From an uncultured Leptotrichia sp. (lineage in GTDB: Bacteria; Fusobacteriota; Fusobacteriia; Fusobacteriales; Leptotrichiaceae): a DNA stretch of 31,829 nt. The translations under genes were made by a program, and so were the position numbers. The notes under the pieces were generated by a model. It was given only the letters and a program-made list of their open reading frames with translations, was not told the origin of the DNA and ran no database searches. Positions 3,156-18,128 of this stretch are shown here, piece after piece. The stretch's first letter is position 1. Each line of letters starts with the position of its first letter. The stretch is taken from positions 1 to 31,829 of the forward strand of contig CALIJH010000167.1 in NCBI GenBank assembly GCA_938017765.1, read 5' to 3'.

Positions 3156-3182
3156 TTAGCACTCTATACATATGATTGCTAG
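3156..3182. promoter_or_regulatory. CIRCE-like inverted repeat (TTAGCACTC-N9-GATTGCTAG) upstream of clpB
   Basis: The left arm matches the HrcA operator (CIRCE) consensus TTAGCACTC exactly. The spacer is 9 nt. The right arm matches GAGTGCTAA at 7 of 9 positions. It lies about 165 nt upstream of the clpB start, in the divergent intergenic region. Confidence 0.4.
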
Positions 3183-3454
3183 CAAAAATAATATATCATA
3201 TTTTTATTAATGTGTCAATGGTTTTTTTGAAAAAAACTATATTTTTTTGAAAGTAGTGATAAAGCTCAGATAGAACCGCATATTTGTTGTATAAAAATTA
3301 AAAATATAAAATTATCAAATAATCTGAATTATATATGAAAATAAAATCTCTCATTTTTCTTTAATCTTCATTTGCTAATATATACAAAATGAAACTTCAT
3401 AAGAAATTTTATGAAAAATAGAAATTATAGTTTATACAGGGAGATGATATTTTT

Positions 3455-4549: not shown

Positions 4550-5815
4550 ATGAAAATATTGCATATATTGGCACAGTTACCTGTAAAGACAGGAAGTGGA
4601 GTTTATTTCACAAATGTCATTGACGGATTGAAAGAATATCGGGATATAGAGCAGGCATGTGTTTATGCTACGACAGCCGATTACGATATAAATATACTGG
4701 ACAGGAAAAATCAATATGAAGTAGTTTTTGAAAGTGAAAATCTCCCCTTTTCTATAGTAGGAATGAGTGATATTATGCCTTATCCCAATACGCTTTATCA
4801 TAATATGACCGACGAAATGTTCGGGCAATGGAAAAAGGAATTTCTGAAACAGTTAAATCTTGCAAAAAATAATTTTAATCCCGATGTAATATTGACTCAT
4901 CATCTTTGGATACTGTCATCAATGACAAGGGAGATTTTTCCCGATAAAAAAGTAGTTGCAGTATGCCATAATACTGATATAAGGCAGGCAAGGCAAAATG
5001 AAAGCCTGAAAAAAAGGCATATACACTCCCTGAAAGATGTGGATAATGTGCTGGCTCTAAGTAATAGACAGTTCAAGGATATAGAGGAAGTATTTGGAAT
5101 ATCGGAAGAAAAAATAATAGACATAGGGGCGGGATATAATGAAAAAATATTCTATCCGCCTGAACATTATCCTGAAAAAGAAAAAGTGGAATTAGTATAC
5201 GCAGGAAAGTTTGATGATTCCAAAGGGTTTTATGAACTGATAAAGGCATTTAGAAAAATAGAGGAAAATGACGACAGCGTTACGATAGATTTGATAGGTA
5301 ACATAACCGAACAGAATAGAGAAAGAATAAAAAAAGAAGTGGGAAATTCCAAAAATATTAATGTCTATAATGCTGTATCCCAGAAAGAATTAGCGGACAT
5401 TATGCGGACAAAGGATATTTTTATACTGCCTTCATATTTTGAAGGGTTGGGACTTATAGCTGTAGAAGCACTCGGGAGCGGTCTTAGAGTAGTTGCTACA
5501 AAGATAGACGGGCTTATAGAGCTGCTCGGAAAAGAGCTGAATGTTGATGAGATTATCGAATATGTCGATATGCCCACGATTTACGATACTGATAAAGCTG
5601 TGGAAGAAGAAAAACCTGCATTTGTATTGAGATTGGCAGATAAAATAGAAAATATGATAAAAAGAACAAGGGAAAAAAGAGAAATAGACAAGGCGTTGAT
5701 TGAAAAAATTCAGAAAAAATCATGGAAATCAAAAATAGAAGATATAAAAGATGTTTTGTGTAAAGATAATAACAGTTGCCACCAAACAAATATGAAAAAA
5801 GATATGGATAAATAA
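4550..5815 (+). CDS. GT-B fold glycosyltransferase, family GT4-like (retaining glycosyltransferase)
   Basis: 421-aa ORF with RBS GGCGGAGGA. The C-terminal sequence EGLGLIAVEALGSGLRVVATKIDGL matches the GT4 E-x7-E / 'EGFG...EAMA.G.PVV' signature. A 'KVELVYAGKFDDSKGF' nucleotide-sugar binding region is present. Confidence 0.8.
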   Translation: MKILHILAQLPVKTGSGVYFTNVIDGLKEYRDIEQACVYATTADYDINILDRKNQYEVVFESENLPFSIVGMSDIMPYPNTLYHNMTDEMFGQWKKEFLKQLNLAKNNFNPDVILTHHLWILSSMTREIFPDKKVVAVCHNTDIRQARQNESLKKRHIHSLKDVDNVLALSNRQFKDIEEVFGISEEKIIDIGAGYNEKIFYPPEHYPEKEKVELVYAGKFDDSKGFYELIKAFRKIEENDDSVTIDLIGNITEQNRERIKKEVGNSKNINVYNAVSQKELADIMRTKDIFILPSYFEGLGLIAVEALGSGLRVVATKIDGLIELLGKELNVDEIIEYVDMPTIYDTDKAVEEEKPAFVLRLADKIENMIKRTREKREIDKALIEKIQKKSWKSKIEDIKDVLCKDNNSCHQTNMKKDMDK

Positions 5816-11212: not shown

Positions 11213-12439
11213 ATGAATAAATTTTTCGGCTTAAATGATACATTGTATCAAATTGTGGAAAAATATCCCGAAACACTCGAATTTTTTATAGCTAACGGAT
11301 TTGAGCAGCTAAAAAATAAACAGATGTTTGAGTCAATGGCAAAAAATATAAAACTCAATATGGCTTTAAAAATAAAGAAAATCAATCCTGAATTGTTTGA
11401 AGAAAAATTAGTTGCATTTTTGCAGAAAGACAGCGAAACTGATATCTCCCTTGAGGGGAAAAAGGAAAATGCCACGGGAGATATACTTATAGAGGGAGTT
11501 TTACCCTGTCCTATCAGGATACCTCTGCTGGAAGGCATAAAAAAATGGGCTGAAACGAGAAATAAAGAAGTAGATTATAAGATAGATTATGAATTGCAGT
11601 CGGCAAATCTGGGCTTGGACTGGGTTGTGGATAAAGTGAAAACAGGAAACCCTGATAAAGTCTCGGATATACTCTTATCGGCAGGGTTTGAGTTGTTTTT
11701 TGACAAGGAGCTTATGGGGCAGTTTATGGAAAAAGGAATATTTGAAACATATTTAAATGATATGAACAAAGATTTCTGTAATGAAGAAATTGACTTAAGA
11801 GACCCTAAAAAACAGTATGCCATAATGGGAGTAGTCCCTGCTGTGTTCCTTATAAATAAAACAGTTCTTGGAGACAGAAAGCCACCTGAAGTATGGGAAG
11901 ATATATTGAGCGAAGAACTGGAAGATTCGGTAGCTTTACCGATGAATGACCTCGACTTGTTCAATGCTCTCATTATCAATATATACAAAGACTACGGTTC
12001 TGAAGGTATTCAGAAACTTGCAAGGTCTTACAAGAAAAATCTTCATCCGGCACAAATGGTGAAAGCCAAAGGGAGAAGTGGAGACGCACCTGCCGTAAGT
12101 ATAATTCCGTATTTCTTTACACAGATGCTAATGGGAGCGACCGACCTCGAAGCCGTATGGCCGAAAGACGGGGCGTTACTCAGTCCTATATTTATGATTA
12201 CAAAAAAGTCCAAAAAAGATAAAATTCAGCCTTTTATAGATTTCTTTATGTCCGAAGAAATAGGGACACTGTTTTCCGCTAACGGAAAATTTCCGTCGAC
12301 AAATCCCAATGTGGACAATCATCTGAAAGAAGACCAGAAATTTAAATGGATTGGCTGGGATTTCATTCATAGCAATGACGTCGGAGGATTAGTCAGAAAA
12401 TGCGAAGATGAATTTAACGAAGCCATTATGAAATTATAA
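11213..12439 (+). CDS. Cytoplasmic DUF1858-like N-terminal domain fused to a periplasmic-binding-protein (PBP type II, SBP family 1-like) domain; function unknown
   Basis: 408 aa with RBS AAAGGAG. The first ~70 aa (…EKYPETLEFFIANGF…) resemble DUF1858/ScdA_N. The C-terminal part carries 'IQPFIDFFMSEEIGTLFSANGKFPS', resembling the SBP_bac_1-type 'FIDFLLSxEgQ' motif. No signal peptide. Confidence 0.65.
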   Translation: MNKFFGLNDTLYQIVEKYPETLEFFIANGFEQLKNKQMFESMAKNIKLNMALKIKKINPELFEEKLVAFLQKDSETDISLEGKKENATGDILIEGVLPCPIRIPLLEGIKKWAETRNKEVDYKIDYELQSANLGLDWVVDKVKTGNPDKVSDILLSAGFELFFDKELMGQFMEKGIFETYLNDMNKDFCNEEIDLRDPKKQYAIMGVVPAVFLINKTVLGDRKPPEVWEDILSEELEDSVALPMNDLDLFNALIINIYKDYGSEGIQKLARSYKKNLHPAQMVKAKGRSGDAPAVSIIPYFFTQMLMGATDLEAVWPKDGALLSPIFMITKKSKKDKIQPFIDFFMSEEIGTLFSANGKFPSTNPNVDNHLKEDQKFKWIGWDFIHSNDVGGLVRKCEDEFNEAIMKL

Positions 12440-12554
12440 TAAAATAACTGTGATGAAGATAAAGATCTGAATTATAGTTATAACAATATCAAAGAATATC
12501 AAGGTGTATGATAAGATATGATAAGACAAAAAAAATGATTATTCAGGAGGAAAT

Positions 12555-13259
12555 ATGAATTTAATAATAGTTTCAGGACCACCCTCATCAGGAAAAACAA
12601 GTGTAATATTGAAAACTGTTGACGCCCTGAAGAAACAGGGAATGTCAGTGGGAGTAGTAAAATTTGACTGCTTGTATACAGATGACGATATATTGTATGA
12701 AAAAGCAGGAATACCTGTAAAAAAAGGTATTTCGGGAGCATTATGTCCTGACCATTTTTTTGTATCGAATATAGAAGAAGTAGTACAGTGGGGCAGAAGT
12801 TTGGGACTTTCCATGCTTATAACCGAATCGGCGGGTCTTTGTAATCGTTGTTCGCCATATATAAAGGATATAAAAGGGATATGTGTAATCGACAATCTGT
12901 CGGGCATAAATACACCTAAAAAAATAGGACCTATGCTGAAAGCCGCAGATATAGTTATTATTACTAAAGGAGATATTGTTTCGCAGGCTGAAAGGGAAGT
13001 ATTTGCCTCAAGGGTAAATTCTGTAAATCCCGGTGCTATAACAATGCACGTAAACGGGCTTACAGGACAGGGAGCCTATGAATTAAGCACACTGCTTTAT
13101 GAAAAGGAAAAAGAAATAGAAACTGTTCAGGGGAAAAAACTCAGATTTCCTATGCCGTCGGCTCTATGTTCCTATTGTCTTGGGGAAACGAGAATAGGAG
13201 AAAAATATCAAATGGGAAATGTCAGAAAAATGAATTTAGGCGGTAATAACGATGAATAA
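12555..13259 (+). CDS. SIMIBI-class P-loop GTPase, G3E family-like (HypB/UreG/CobW-like putative metallochaperone)
   Basis: Walker A GPPSSGKTS at residue 8. Switch-II-like ESAGLCNRCSP (cf. HypB ENVGNLVCP). TKGD (NKxD-like) and a 'NGLTGQG' G5-like motif are present. Additional C-terminal CSYC motif. Strong RBS AGGAGG. Confidence 0.7.
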   Translation: MNLIIVSGPPSSGKTSVILKTVDALKKQGMSVGVVKFDCLYTDDDILYEKAGIPVKKGISGALCPDHFFVSNIEEVVQWGRSLGLSMLITESAGLCNRCSPYIKDIKGICVIDNLSGINTPKKIGPMLKAADIVIITKGDIVSQAEREVFASRVNSVNPGAITMHVNGLTGQGAYELSTLLYEKEKEIETVQGKKLRFPMPSALCSYCLGETRIGEKYQMGNVRKMNLGGNNDE

Positions 13260-14265
13260 AAAACTTGTAGATGAACTGAAAATGTCCGAATTACTGGACA
13301 AGTATCCTTTTACGGAAAATTTTTTCAGTGAAAATGTTATCGACATAAAAGGTCATGAAAATGAGACATTCAGTGAGTTCTTAGATAAATTTGCCGAAGA
13401 AGAAATAGAAGATATGGCATTGGATACAGAAAAAATAAAAGAGGGGTTAATCGAATATATCGAACAGATGAAGCTGTTTCTTGGAATGGAAGAAGAGAGC
13501 GGTGTCGAAGTTCTGACAATAATTGCGGGAAAAGATAAAACGGGTAATCCTGAAGGTTTTGAAAGACTTGATATAAACAAATCGGAAATAATATCTATAG
13601 TAGGGCCTACAGGCTCTGGAAAATCAAGACTGCTCGCAGATATAGAATGGACGGCTCAAAAAGATACGCCGACACAGAGAGAAATACTTATTAACGGGGA
13701 GCTGCCTGACAAAAAATGGAGATATTCATCAAACAATAAGCTTGTCGCCCAGTTATCCCAAAATATGAATTTTGTCATGGATTTATCCGTGAGGGATTTT
13801 TTGGAATTGCATGCTAAAAGCAGAATGATAGATGATATTCAGGGAGTAACTGATAAAATCATAGAAGAAGCAAATAAACTTGCAGGAGAGCAGTTTAATC
13901 TCGATACGCCGATTACAGCCCTCAGTGGGGGACAGTCAAGGGCATTGATGATAGCAGACACTGCAATACTAAGTTCTTCGCCTATAGTCCTGATAGATGA
14001 GATTGAAAATGCGGGAATTGACAGAAAGAAAGCCCTCGATTTACTCGTTTCATCAGATAAGATTGTACTTATGGCGACTCATGACCCCACATTGGCATTG
14101 ATAGCCGATAAAAGAATTATAATCAAAAATGGAGGTATTTCAAAAATAATAAAAACAAGCCCTAAAGAAAAGAAAATTTTGTCAAAGCTTGAAGAAATGG
14201 ATAATATTATCCAAAAAATGAGAACAGATTTAAGAAATGGGGAAATATTGACAGATAATAAATAA
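13252..14265 (+). CDS. Soluble ABC-type ATPase with N-terminal DUF1858-like module (no cognate permease in locus)
   Basis: Walker A GPTGSGKS, ABC signature LSGGQSRAL, Walker B IVLIDEIENAGID and H-loop MATHD are present. The N-terminus MNKKLVDELKMSELLDKYPFTENFF is paralogous to the N-terminus of the 11213 ORF. It overlaps the upstream GTPase gene by 8 nt. Confidence 0.8.
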   Translation: MNKKLVDELKMSELLDKYPFTENFFSENVIDIKGHENETFSEFLDKFAEEEIEDMALDTEKIKEGLIEYIEQMKLFLGMEEESGVEVLTIIAGKDKTGNPEGFERLDINKSEIISIVGPTGSGKSRLLADIEWTAQKDTPTQREILINGELPDKKWRYSSNNKLVAQLSQNMNFVMDLSVRDFLELHAKSRMIDDIQGVTDKIIEEANKLAGEQFNLDTPITALSGGQSRALMIADTAILSSSPIVLIDEIENAGIDRKKALDLLVSSDKIVLMATHDPTLALIADKRIIIKNGGISKIIKTSPKEKKILSKLEEMDNIIQKMRTDLRNGEILTDNK

Positions 14266-14485: not shown

Positions 14486-15157
14486 TTATATCTCATCTTT
14501 AAACATTATAACAAATACCGATAACAGTATAATACAGCAAACTAAAAGAGCTTTTTCCTTGAATATTTCGGAAAAAAATGAACCTGTAACAGCACCAATC
14601 ATAAAAAAAAGTATAAGACCGTAATAAGTCAGAAATTTATGCTTTGCATCTCTGTTCTTAGTTGACAGATAGTTATAGAGATTTTCCGTCCCGCTTCTCA
14701 GGTTTCCTGTACACATTGTTGTAGCGGAAAGGTTGCCTCGTGTTTTTCTGAATCCCTGTACCTGCAAGGAGCAGACAAATGATATTGCAATATTTACAAA
14801 AACATTCAGCTCTCCTTTAGGAATAAAAGAAGAGATGAATAAAACTGCAACTTCTATAAGGATAACAATCTGTCTCCAATGAATTTTGTTATGCTTGAAT
14901 TTCTTTTTGATAATCTCGGCAATCAGAATGCCCACTGCAAAAGCAAATATAGGTAAAAAGTAAAATAAAGCGTCTCTCCATCTTTTTTCGACTAACCTCA
15001 AAGCAAAAAAGACCATATTTCCTGTTTGAGCGTTGGCGAGAACTTTTCCTCTCATAATAAAAGTGTAAGCGTCAGTAAAGCCGCCTACAAGACAAAGCAG
15101 TAATGCCAGTCTGAAAGTATCCGAAGTCTGTTTTTTTGATTTTATGTTTTCTTTCAT
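14486..15157 (-). CDS. YoaK-family (DUF1275/UPF0700) inner-membrane protein
   Basis: 223 aa and multi-TM. 'GGFTDAYTF...LANAQTGN' matches the DUF1275 signature. RBS GGAGAG lies 9 nt upstream. Confidence 0.8.
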   Translation of the reverse strand: MKENIKSKKQTSDTFRLALLLCLVGGFTDAYTFIMRGKVLANAQTGNMVFFALRLVEKRWRDALFYFLPIFAFAVGILIAEIIKKKFKHNKIHWRQIVILIEVAVLFISSFIPKGELNVFVNIAISFVCSLQVQGFRKTRGNLSATTMCTGNLRSGTENLYNYLSTKNRDAKHKFLTYYGLILFFMIGAVTGSFFSEIFKEKALLVCCIILLSVFVIMFKDEI

Positions 15158-15330
15158 TATTTATATCTCTCCATTTATTTTGTTATTTTTTGGTCTGACT
15201 ATTATTCCAAAATTCTTAAAGTAATCATTATTACATCTAATTGTAACAGAAAACAGTATATTTTTAAAGAGCATAAATAAAATATTCCATAGTATAAAAA
15301 AATTAAATGAAAAAAACATATCTGATATTA

Positions 15331-15359
15331 TTGACATTCTTGCAAGTAAAAGATATAAT
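15331..15359 (+). promoter_or_regulatory. Perfect consensus sigma70 promoter TTGACA-17-TATAAT
   Basis: TTGACA at 15331-15336, a 17-nt spacer, and TATAAT at 15354-15359. No protein-coding gene lies downstream on this strand for more than 2 kb. Confidence 0.6.
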
Positions 15360-15366
15360 ATACTTG

Positions 15367-15590
15367 TAATCAGAAATAAAAAATTCTGGTCTATTCGTTA
15401 CCGACGATACAATTTTTGGGCTTTACTCTTTCTTAATGGGGTCAGACTTTTGTATTTTGAATCAGGCACATCACGGCGGTTCTATACTTTGCACGGATTC
15501 TGTACAATTTACAAATATGACTACCACCTGTACCAACTACAGGCGACCAAAAATTCAGTCGAAACGGTAGATTGGATTTTTTTAATTTGT
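15367..15590 (+). ncRNA. Candidate small non-coding RNA (GC-enriched structured region driven by consensus promoter); identity unknown
   Basis: About 220 nt with clearly higher GC than the flanking intergenic DNA. It contains several hairpins (e.g. CCTGTA-ccaac-TACAGG at 15528-15544) and no ORF longer than 16 codons. It ends in a T-rich stretch near 15590. Confidence 0.3.
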
Positions 15591-15832
15591 TAGATTTTTT
15601 ATATATATAATTTAAATTCTGGATAAAATAAAAATTTTTTTGAAAAAAGTTAAAAAAGTATATTTGATAAGAATACTGATTTTTATAAAAGTGAAAGAAA
15701 TATTTTTAGTTAGTAAAAAAAGTTTGTAAAAAAATCTCAAAAATATTTTGAAATTTAAAAAAAACAAGGTATATATTTAATGTACTTATTTTTGAAAAAG
15801 ATTTTATCTTTTTTGTCTTTTCATAGCGTTAC

Positions 15833-15866
15833 AAAAAGAGTGGAACCCCAACCACTCTTTTTTCTA
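15833..15866. terminator. Bidirectional rho-independent terminator (AAAGAGTGG-aacccca-CCACTCTTT + T-run)
   Basis: 9-bp stem flanked by an A-run and a T-run. It lies about 90 nt downstream of the Crp/Fnr gene stop on the minus strand. It also closes the plus-strand intergenic transcript. Confidence 0.7.
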
Positions 15867-15953
15867 TTCATTTTATACTATATTGTAATTTCAAAAAATT
15901 TTATAAATGGAATTGAATAAAATTGATAATTATAAATCCTGCATTGCTGTGTA

Positions 15954-16616
15954 TTATAATTTCGAAAAATCTACCTGATATTTATTGTTTTTAATTTTTT
16001 TCAAAATACCTCTATCGCATAATGTCGAGATTTCCCTCGAAAGGGAGGGTCTTGTAATTTCAAATTTTTTTGAAAGTTCGGATATATTGGGCTGAAATGA
16101 GATAATCCCGTCTTTTTGATTTTCCCTTATATAGCTGAGGATTTTGTCATTTATAGTTTTATTGACAAAATTAAACCATATTCTTTTGGATAAAAGCTGA
16201 CTTTTATTGGATATTTCATCGAGGAAATTTAAAAGAATTCTCTTATCCTCCTGCATAATTTCCACAAAATCTTTTTTATTCAGAAATAAATATTTGGATT
16301 TTTCAACGGAAATGAGGTCTACAGGGAAAACTTTAGTATCTCCGAATATAAATGCGGGAGCTATAATTTCGTAAGTTTTTATAAAGTCAATAGTGATAGT
16401 TTCTCCCCCTGATTTCTGCATTTCCCCTTTGGCAGAGCCTTCGAGGATAATGATGATATTTTCAATATTATCTCCTCTGAAAAATACCGTTTCATTTTTT
16501 TTATAATTTCTGATATGATAATTTATTTTTTTTAGTACGGCTTCTGTTTCATTTATGTCAAATCCTTTAAATAAGGAAACTTTTGATATTATTTTATAAA
16601 GTTCGTGGGGTTTCAT
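15954..16616 (-). CDS. Crp/Fnr-family transcriptional regulator (cNMP-binding domain + C-terminal HTH)
   Basis: 220 aa with an N-terminal cyclic-nucleotide-binding-like beta-roll. C-terminal HTH 'ISELSKKFEITRPSLSREISTLCDRGILKK'. There is no N-terminal Cys cluster, so it is not an FNR-type O2 sensor. RBS GGGAGG. Confidence 0.85.
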   Translation of the reverse strand: MKPHELYKIISKVSLFKGFDINETEAVLKKINYHIRNYKKNETVFFRGDNIENIIIILEGSAKGEMQKSGGETITIDFIKTYEIIAPAFIFGDTKVFPVDLISVEKSKYLFLNKKDFVEIMQEDKRILLNFLDEISNKSQLLSKRIWFNFVNKTINDKILSYIRENQKDGIISFQPNISELSKKFEITRPSLSREISTLCDRGILKKIKNNKYQVDFSKL

Positions 16617-16636
16617 AAAGACCTCCCTGTATAAAA

Positions 16637-17377
16637 TTATTTTATGTATTTTATAAATATTTCAGTAATTATGAGAATAAATACCGAAGGCAGCATATTT
16701 GCCACTTTTATATTTTTTTTCAGAACAATGTTGATACCTAAAGCACAAATCATTATTCCGCCTAAAAAGTCTAAATCCGATATTGCTTCAGGAGTCAGAA
16801 AAGATTTTATCTGCTGGGCAAAAAGATAAAATATTCCCTGATATATAAGTACCGAAAAAGCTGAAAAAATTACTCCTATACCATAAGTGGAAGCAAATAT
16901 TATAGCTGTAATTCCGTCCAGTACGGATTTTATGTTCAATATTTTATTATCACCGGCAAGACCGCTGTTTATAGGACCTATTATAGCCATTGCTCCTACA
17001 CAATACAGAATAGTAGTCATAGAAAGACCTTTGGCAAAATTGGAATCCTTTTCTTTATTTTCAATTGGATTTAAAAGATTATCATTTTTATAAGAAATAG
17101 ACGAAATTTTGGAAAATTTATTTTCTACGAAAATACTTAATTTTTTAATTTGAAAATCTATGTCAATAATTTGCCCAATAATTGAGCCGACCATAAAGTA
17201 TATAAGAATTTTGATTTCCCTGTCGGAATTAAATGTAGCTTTTATACCTGAAATAATAATAAATAAACCTATACAGTCCATTATAGTATTTCTGATATTT
17301 TCTTTAAACCTTTTTCCTATAACAAGCCCAAGCAGACTGCCTACTATAATAACTGCAAAATTAGTAATGATTCCCAT
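16637..17377 (-). CDS. DUF554-family (YqgA-like) membrane protein
   Basis: 246 aa. The N-terminus 'MGIITNFAVIIVGSLLGLVIGKRF' is typical of DUF554. Multi-TM. It is the first gene of a two-gene minus-strand operon with the Crp/Fnr regulator, separated by a 20-nt gap. Confidence 0.75.
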   Translation of the reverse strand: MGIITNFAVIIVGSLLGLVIGKRFKENIRNTIMDCIGLFIIISGIKATFNSDREIKILIYFMVGSIIGQIIDIDFQIKKLSIFVENKFSKISSISYKNDNLLNPIENKEKDSNFAKGLSMTTILYCVGAMAIIGPINSGLAGDNKILNIKSVLDGITAIIFASTYGIGVIFSAFSVLIYQGIFYLFAQQIKSFLTPEAISDLDFLGGIMICALGINIVLKKNIKVANMLPSVFILIITEIFIKYIK

Positions 17378-17675: not shown

Positions 17676-17777
17676 ATTTCGTATATTGAATAAGGATATT
17701 CCGCTTTTATTGTTAATGCTGATACATAATATCAGTAAAGATAGAAAGAATATCGCGTAAAGAAGGGAGTGGATTTC

Positions 17778-18128
17778 TTGAAAGAGAAATTAATCGAACT
17801 GGTAGAAAAAGAATACTTAAAATCTGACATACCTCAATTTAAATCAGGAGACACAATAGCTGTCTATTATAAAGTAAAAGAGGGAAATAAAGAAAGAATA
17901 CAGGTATTCGAAGGTGTAGTTATAAGAGTATCCGGTGGCGGAATGGCTAAAAACTTCACTGTAAGAAAAGTATCTTCGGGAGTAGGTGTAGAAAGAATAA
18001 TACCTATAAATTCTCCGTTAATTGAAAAAATAGAAGTTAAGAGAATAGGAAAAGTAAGAAGAGCAAGATTATATTACTTGAGAAACTTATCAGGAAAAGC
18101 TGCTAGAATTAAAGAAATTAGAAAGTAG
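17778..18128 (+). CDS. rplS: 50S ribosomal protein L19
   Basis: Strong similarity to bacterial L19 (…[26 protein letters not shown]…RRARLYYLR…GKAARIKE). The likely start is TTG 17778 (MKEKLIELV), 9 nt after GGGAG. The ORF track starts at GTG 17769, directly abutting the SD. Confidence 0.9.

Follow-up and report, generated by a model that had tools for sequence, protein, structure and literature searches.

What does a perfect consensus promoter transcribe when it fires into an intergenic gap of 800 nt that looks empty? The locus that raises this question lies in the genome of an uncultured bacterium, and 31.8 kb of DNA around it (hereafter the window, the whole stretch that was analysed) were available to us. 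The initial annotation regarded the promoter as an orphan and proposed that it drives a non-coding small RNA, either 6S RNA or a lineage-specific species. Rfam matches and covariation support the first of these options and leave no need for the second. The region 15331-15583 on the plus strand is almost certainly the 6S RNA gene, ssrS, of an uncultured Leptotrichia/Pseudoleptotrichia-like bacterium from the mouth, and the supposed orphan is the promoter of that gene. This assignment is based on family membership by sequence and structure, on covariation, on conservation of the promoter and on the absence of coding constraint. The features of the locus are collected in Table 1.

Table 1. Features of the 6S RNA locus, its neighbours and the conserved unit downstream
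Feature	Sequence	Position	Strand	Remarks
DUF1275 membrane protein	Window	14486-15157	-	Divergent neighbour
6S promoter	Window	15331-15359	+	-35 TTGACA 15331-15336, 17-nt spacer, -10 TATAAT 15354-15359
5' leader	Window	15366-15379	+	Between the presumed start site and the closing stem
6S RNA (ssrS) body	Window	15380-15583	+	About 203 nt: closing stem, central loop, apical stem, U-tract
Helices 1-3, 5' strand (closing and internal stems)	Window	15385-15419	+	Pairs with 15547-15580
Predicted pRNA template	Window	15411-15426	+	AAUUUUUGGGCUUUAC
Central loop, 5' strand	Window	15420-15436	+	GCUUUACUCUUUCUUAA; single-stranded in the MFE and consensus folds
ORF, ATG start, 44 aa	Window	15436-15570		Inside the 6S region
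Apical (terminal) stem-loop, helices 4-7	Window	15437-15526	+	28 pairs
ORF, TTG start, 47 aa	Window	15450-15593		Inside the 6S region
Central loop, 3' strand	Window	15527-15546	+	Holds the small hairpin CCUGUA-CCAAC-UACAGG, 15527-15543
U7 tract	Window	15577-15583	+	Directly after the closing stem; likely 6S 3' end or termination signal
Separate conserved unit, not 6S	Window	15748-15868	+	Promoter-like boxes, body of about 80 nt, hairpin and T-run
TTGAAA/TATAT promoter-like boxes	Window	15748-15777	+	Upstream of the near-invariant body
11-bp hairpin	Window	15833-15862	+	A-run before, T-run after; 250 nt past the 6S 3' end
Crp/Fnr-like regulator	Window	15954-16616	-	Convergent neighbour
DUF554	Window	16637-17377	-	Flanking gene
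rplS	Window	17769-18128	+	Flanking gene
Signal peptidase	Window			Flanking gene
Copy of the downstream unit	L002	1794-1935	-
Copy of the downstream unit	L007	5986-6127	+
Copy of the downstream unit	L030	about 3166-3300	-
Copy of the downstream unit	L031
Copy of the downstream unit	L032	3659-3800	-
Copy of the downstream unit	L033

A scan of the entire window against Rfam 15 returned a single match above a gathering score, to the 6S RNA family RF00013, at 15380-15582 on the plus strand (53.3 bits against a gathering score of 46.4; E 4.3e-8). The match spans positions 1-187 of the 187-position model, and its score lies only about 7 bits over the threshold. A permissive Rfam scan restricted to 15100-16000 gave RF00013 as the sole family with E < 0.6. 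Competing families in this interval amounted to noise, comprising L20_leader at 18.9 bits (threshold 58.7), which falls in the neighbouring conserved unit outside the 6S sequence, and SmY at 16.5 bits; no tRNA or tmRNA was found in the window. The cmscan search that the initial annotation had recommended thereby recovered a full-length 6S RNA in the window, and seven of the eight relatives tested with Rfam likewise scored at or above the gathering score; all eight (L002 and L030-L036) span 45.7-51.8 bits.

Relatives were gathered by three kinds of search. Contigs sought through the DUF1275 neighbour gave three loci, one of which ends just past the perfect promoter (L001) and another of which proved to be an unrelated Clostridia locus without 6S RNA. 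The L002 locus holds a full-length 6S RNA in the syntenic position, at 48.4 bits. A DNA pattern taken from the 3' part of the RNA matched 22 metagenome loci; 19 are true homologues, two of them identical to the window, and the remaining three (L006, L009 and L016) were discarded as chance matches in GC-rich DNA. With the adjacent Crp-like gene as the anchor, seven further, diverged loci were fetched, all of which carry a full-length 6S RNA beside that gene and six of which pass the threshold. The seventh, in L033 (3527-3731, minus strand; GCA_041779435.1), scores 45.7 bits, 0.7 below the threshold; it has the same promoter, synteny and fold as the others, and standard annotation would miss the gene. 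The RNA is present in nine other Leptotrichiaceae lineages, at 78-93% RNA identity to the window. As for the organism itself, the nearest genome matches are Leptotrichia MAGs with 79-80% protein identity, the Crp-like protein matches one from Pseudoleptotrichia goodfellowii at 84% identity in an alignment that covers 70% of its length, and proteins identical to those of the window occur on many human metagenome contigs, including one HMP sample.

The genes that flank the RNA differ by lineage and include nitroreductase-like, SelR, ToxN, MatE and autotransporter genes. Furthermore, in two loci, L035 (Leptotrichia sp. oral taxon 223) and L036 (a related metagenome lineage), the orientation of the 6S gene with respect to the Crp-like gene is reversed. 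Given this inversion and the changing neighbours, the RNA and its promoter form an independent unit. The inverted copies (L035 3175-3439 and L036 3175-3465, both plus strand) follow the Crp-like gene immediately and share its strand, and the perfect promoter overlaps the final bases of that gene (stop codon at 3178). Two further features of the neighbourhood may be recorded. Beside the DUF1275 gene, L030 carries a ToxN-family toxin gene (4702-5223, minus strand; type III toxin-antitoxin/abortive infection), and the window has no ToxN-family gene at this insertion point. The window also contains an operon-like set (11213-14265, plus strand), conserved beside the locus in the same species, which encodes a fusion of DUF1858 with a solute-binding protein, a GTPase of the CobW/HypB/UreG type and an ABC ATPase whose N-terminal extension is long.

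The 203-nt stretch folds with a minimum free energy (MFE) of -53.4 kcal/mol (z -4.06), a stability that none of 200 shuffled sequences equalled. In the MFE fold, which is a rod, a large asymmetric central loop separates a long closing stem from an apical stem. By the covariation test that the initial annotation had suggested, we analysed whether this rod is maintained by evolution. The first covariation set, made up of close relatives only, held just two compensatory pairs, and the more diverged loci were added because close homologues are too alike for a useful test. The resulting set comprised 14 distinct sequences, for which RNAalifold gave a consensus of 59 pairs in eight helices. Contigs of the BNJ* series (L010, L013, L019, L021 and L023) were left out; their 6S copies differ almost solely in the lengths of homopolymer runs, a pattern that resembles long-read sequencing error. 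Standard pairs filled 99.5% of the cells, compared with 31-42% when the partners were slid and 97.4% in shuffles. Eleven of the 59 pairs changed on both sides; the slid controls gave 0-3 such pairs and the shuffles 4.3 +/- 1.2, with none of 500 shuffles reaching 11. Compensatory changes were found in the closing stem, the internal stems and the apical domain. Helices 1-3 (25 pairs) were paired in 100% of cells, with five pairs changed on both sides, and helices 4-7 were paired in 97.6-100% of cells per helix, with compensatory changes in six pairs. Covariation thus lends strong support to exactly the 6S architecture.

The first nine nucleotides in the 5' strand of the central loop, GCUUUACUC, are invariant (alignment A3, columns 41-49), and GGGCUUUACUC is invariant save for one G-to-A change that is compensated on the opposite strand. 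GG/CC pairs stand at the end of helix 3 and again at the start of helix 4, such that the loop strand is bounded by G-C pairs on both sides. The 3' strand of the loop contains the hairpin that the initial annotation had picked out as CCTGTA-ccaac-TACAGG. This element, helix 8 of the consensus, has six pairs that form in 100% of cells across the 14 sequences, and its loop varies in sequence and length. Flanking it, ACCACCUG agrees with the Rfam 6S consensus CCACCUg, and the conserved motif AAACGG coincides with the Rfam consensus as well.

The modest Rfam score (53.3 bits, where E. coli 6S RNA reaches 139.8) and the one relative just under the threshold might be taken to mean that this is a lineage-specific small RNA whose likeness to 6S RNA is fortuitous and whose mode of action is a different one, such as base-pairing with mRNAs. 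We consider such a coincidence extremely unlikely: model positions 1-187 are covered in nine independent lineages with E values of about 1e-6 to 1e-8, the covariation fits precisely the 6S architecture, ACCACCUG and AAACGG fall on the motifs of the Rfam consensus, and no other family scores in the region. Every defining feature of 6S RNA that can be tested by computation is found in the Leptotrichia RNA. It matches RF00013 above the gathering score over the full model length, it has an evolutionarily maintained rod with closing stem, large central loop and apical stem, its 5' central-loop strand is conserved, single-stranded, capable of serving as a template and closed by G-C pairs on both sides, and it appears to be a stand-alone non-coding unit of about 180-200 nt with a housekeeping-sigma promoter.

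The GC content of the locus is 0.38-0.42 over about 15400-15550, compared with 0.13-0.21 in the flanking intergenic DNA and 0.30-0.43 in neighbouring coding DNA. The enrichment over the intergenic surroundings that had been noted before is therefore real, and its level resembles that of the neighbouring genes. The accompanying statement that no ORF exceeds 16 codons was mistaken, as ORFs of 44 codons (ATG) and 47 codons (TTG) are present in the window (Table 1). That one of these encodes a small protein is nonetheless vanishingly improbable. In relatives, premature stops appear from codon 2-7, indels shift the frame and the start codons are lost (to ACG, CTG or TTA), and variable columns are spread evenly across the three codon positions (18/22/19 and 18/15/19). 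There is accordingly no preserved small ORF with substitutions concentrated at third positions, and no gene was called in the 800-nt gap in four same-species metagenome assemblies. Since both ORFs are broken in relatives, the non-coding character claimed for the region stands, and comparison of these sequences indicates that the 6S region is not protein-coding.

Having identified the RNA, we turn to the promoter that precedes it. The textbook promoter described in the initial annotation is present at 15331-15359 on the plus strand, where TTGACA-17-TATAAT scores 12/12, a match seen once in the window and never in 100 shuffles that preserved dinucleotide composition. In 11 of 11 sequence variants the two hexamers are unaltered and stand 17 nt apart; the spacer and the surrounding sequence differ among these variants. 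TTGACA-N16-18-TATAAT occurs once per locus in all fetched Leptotrichiaceae loci that hold the 6S upstream region, a count that covered roughly 250-280 kb of partly redundant sequence, and it sits directly upstream of the 6S gene in every locus whose geometry was checked. Because the match is exact in all variants and found once per locus, at 6S, its conservation indicates that the maximal promoter match is under strong purifying selection. The strictly invariant 12/12 promoter of ssrS may have been selected if its consensus -35 element renders the gene resistant to inhibition by its own product. We rank this reading second to, and weaker than, that of the downstream small RNA discussed below.

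From the usual distance between a -10 element and the first transcribed nucleotide, we infer that 6S transcription starts at about 15366-15368. The segment between the -10 element and the closing stem has an unconserved sequence; its length is 20 nt in the window, and relatives have 23-59 nt. Such a variable leader would probably belong to a precursor that is trimmed at its 5' end, or else form an unconstrained tail; comparison of 15360-15379 of the window with L002, L007 and L036 suggests 5' processing of a precursor. The leader of the L004/L007 lineage holds a small inverted repeat, GGGAATTAATATAAATTCC.

The 3' end of the gene is marked in a different manner. The T-rich sequence that had been noticed after the RNA corresponds to a T-run at 15577-15583, and GGAUUUUUU follows the 3' strand of the closing stem in 14 of 14 aligned sequences (U6-7). 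Given that the opposing 5' nucleotides vary, pairing cannot account for the conservation of this U-run. L004 and L015, which have identical 6S RNAs and different neighbours, diverge within a few bases past it. This break in homology directly after an invariant U-run points to the U-tract as the end of the 6S gene. Termination may be signalled by the closing helix and U-tract together, or trimming may produce the end; a simple scan for local hairpin terminators called no canonical GC-rich terminator hairpin at the 6S 3' end.

Because the same scan called no terminator until the next strong plus-strand hairpin at 15833-15862, transcription could read through 15583, and the RNA could then be a precursor of about 500 nt that reaches this hairpin, or a cis-acting 5' leader such as a riboswitch, T-box or attenuator. 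We judge both forms of this proposal very unlikely. No gene downstream is co-oriented, those at 15954-17377 being on the minus strand, and no match to a riboswitch or T-box, or to any cis-regulatory leader family, was obtained. The 180 nt between the U-tract and the conserved unit downstream are poorly conserved and rich in indels, several lineages lack this unit beside their 6S gene, with homology breaking off past the U-tract, and the unit has conserved -35/-10-like boxes of its own. We therefore retain a 6S gene that ends at the U-tract.

The initial annotation had placed a strong bidirectional terminator after the RNA. A plus-strand hairpin preceded by an A-run and followed by a T-run does exist, but it lies 250 nt past the RNA, is not the obvious end of the 6S transcript and belongs to a separately conserved unit. 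This unit is about 98% identical in lineages whose 6S RNAs are only 83-93% identical. Eighteen loci contain an exact copy of its 22-mer core, among them lineages with 6S RNAs of 83-87% identity, and some 95 nt with the hairpin at their end hardly differ in L030 and L031. Alignment of eight lineages delimits a near-invariant body with sharp boundaries, about 80 nt long (AGUACUUAUUUUUAAAAAAGAUUUUAUCUUUUUUGUCUUUUCAUAGCGUUAC...), preceded by a conserved TTG some 16 nt upstream of a GGTATAT box, an arrangement resembling a -35/-10 pair. One compensatory change, from A-U to G-C, occurs at the base of the hairpin. In the L002 lineage the U-rich tail past the hairpin is confined to the 6S strand, which makes the hairpin a plus-strand terminator there.

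The predicted fold of the unit's plus-strand RNA (z -4.1) has one hairpin on either side of a conserved, single-stranded segment, UGUCUUUUCAUAGCGUUAC. A 46-codon ORF overlaps the unit, and its ATG is lost in L030 and L031. No Rfam family matched the unit. It usually lies 180-250 nt 3' of the 6S gene and in the same orientation; its conservation exceeds that of 6S RNA itself, and several lineages lack it beside 6S. These properties make it a candidate for a separate, unannotated Leptotrichiaceae small RNA that is not part of 6S. More specifically, the segment from about 15781 to 15868 on the plus strand might be a new small regulatory RNA of the Leptotrichiaceae, possibly linked to 6S RNA in function or expression, a tentative proposal to which we give somewhat less than an even chance.

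The conserved central loop of the 6S RNA also allows its product RNA (pRNA) to be predicted. We located the template by aligning E. coli ssrS to the same RF00013 model. The start of the E. coli pRNA, U44, corresponds to model position 45 and to window position 15425, an A flanked by U15424 and C15426. Since the equivalent of U44 is an A here, the exact start of the pRNA is uncertain, and the candidate 5' starts would be GUAAAGCCC or AAAGCCC. RNA polymerases favour initiation with a purine. Combined with the preference for GTP in B. subtilis, this makes a start opposite C15426 the likeliest, in which case the predicted pRNA would be 5'-GUAAAGCCCAAAAAUU. The predicted template/pRNA segment is identical in six of six lineages tested. 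When the template was blocked in silico, as a model of annealed pRNA, the adjacent helix 3 melted in all six sequences; an alternative fold formed in the window sequence alone and in none of the relatives among these six.

6S RNA binds the housekeeping holoenzyme and inhibits transcription, and annealing of the pRNA leads to a rearrangement that releases the enzyme (PMC3923129). By homology, we infer that the Leptotrichia RNA binds the RNA polymerase holoenzyme and inhibits transcription in the same way. The perfect sigma-70-type promoter at 15331-15359 would drive a transcript of about 215 nt, as estimated from its presumed ends. The 6S body would fold, like characterised 6S RNAs, as a rod that mimics an open promoter, and would occupy the active-site cleft of the housekeeping holoenzyme, damping transcription when nutrients are scarce. 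On the return of NTPs, the polymerase would copy the 5' strand of the central loop into a short pRNA, which would melt the adjacent helix and so release the RNA polymerase.

Comparison with known systems places this RNA more precisely. The closest by phylum is that of Fusobacterium nucleatum, also a member of the Fusobacteriota, in which tagged 6S RNA pulls down RNA polymerase subunits (PMC11039985); its pRNAs had been detected earlier by the same authors, as cited there (PMC11039985). The likeness rests on membership of the same RNA family and phylum, the F. nucleatum host belonging to the Fusobacteriaceae and not to the Leptotrichiaceae. As the F. nucleatum RNA binds the polymerase, the same function is expected in Leptotrichia.

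E. coli SsrS, the reference member of RF00013, shares the three-domain rod. Both RNAs align over 187 of 187 model positions, and in both the CCACCU and CGG motifs flank the loop. They are similar in length (183 nt in E. coli, about 203 nt in Leptotrichia) and differ in GC content (0.55 and 0.38, respectively). The neighbours of E. coli ssrS are zapA on one side and fau on the other, both on the same strand; the gene has two promoters and yields an RNA that is trimmed at both ends. The Leptotrichia gene, unlike that of E. coli, is stand-alone, with one perfect promoter, convergent neighbours and a U-tract at its end. It resembles in this respect 6S-1 (BsrA) of B. subtilis, a stand-alone, sigma-A-dependent gene in a low-GC organism. 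For 6S-1, synthesis of pRNAs of 12-14 nt sets off the rearrangement by which the polymerase is freed, and GTP is the favoured initiating nucleotide (PMC3923129); the predicted Leptotrichia pRNA would likewise begin with G if it is templated from C15426. B. subtilis has two paralogues, 6S-1 and 6S-2; within the 32-kb window scanned here, one 6S match is found. Modelling of pRNA annealing in the six Leptotrichiaceae sequences gave no conserved alternative fold like that described for E. coli and B. subtilis.

6S RNA is among the best-studied of bacterial small RNAs. The Leptotrichia gene is thus a known kind of gene with an ordinary housekeeping role, and it was already established that the 6S family exists, that Fusobacteriota have it and that Rfam detects it; the papers searched include none that mentions both 6S RNA and Leptotrichia. 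As a discovery it is minor, given that a standard Rfam scan detects the gene, and only the invariant consensus promoter and the adjacent ultra-conserved unit go beyond routine annotation. The 6S call nonetheless corrects the annotation where an uncultured oral Leptotrichia seemed to have an "empty" intergenic gap of 800 nt. Leptotrichiaceae 6S RNAs score near the Rfam threshold, with one lineage under it, and annotation pipelines can therefore miss them. The locus yields a testable pRNA prediction, and its 12/12 promoter could be put to use as a strong native promoter in genetic work on the Leptotrichiaceae.
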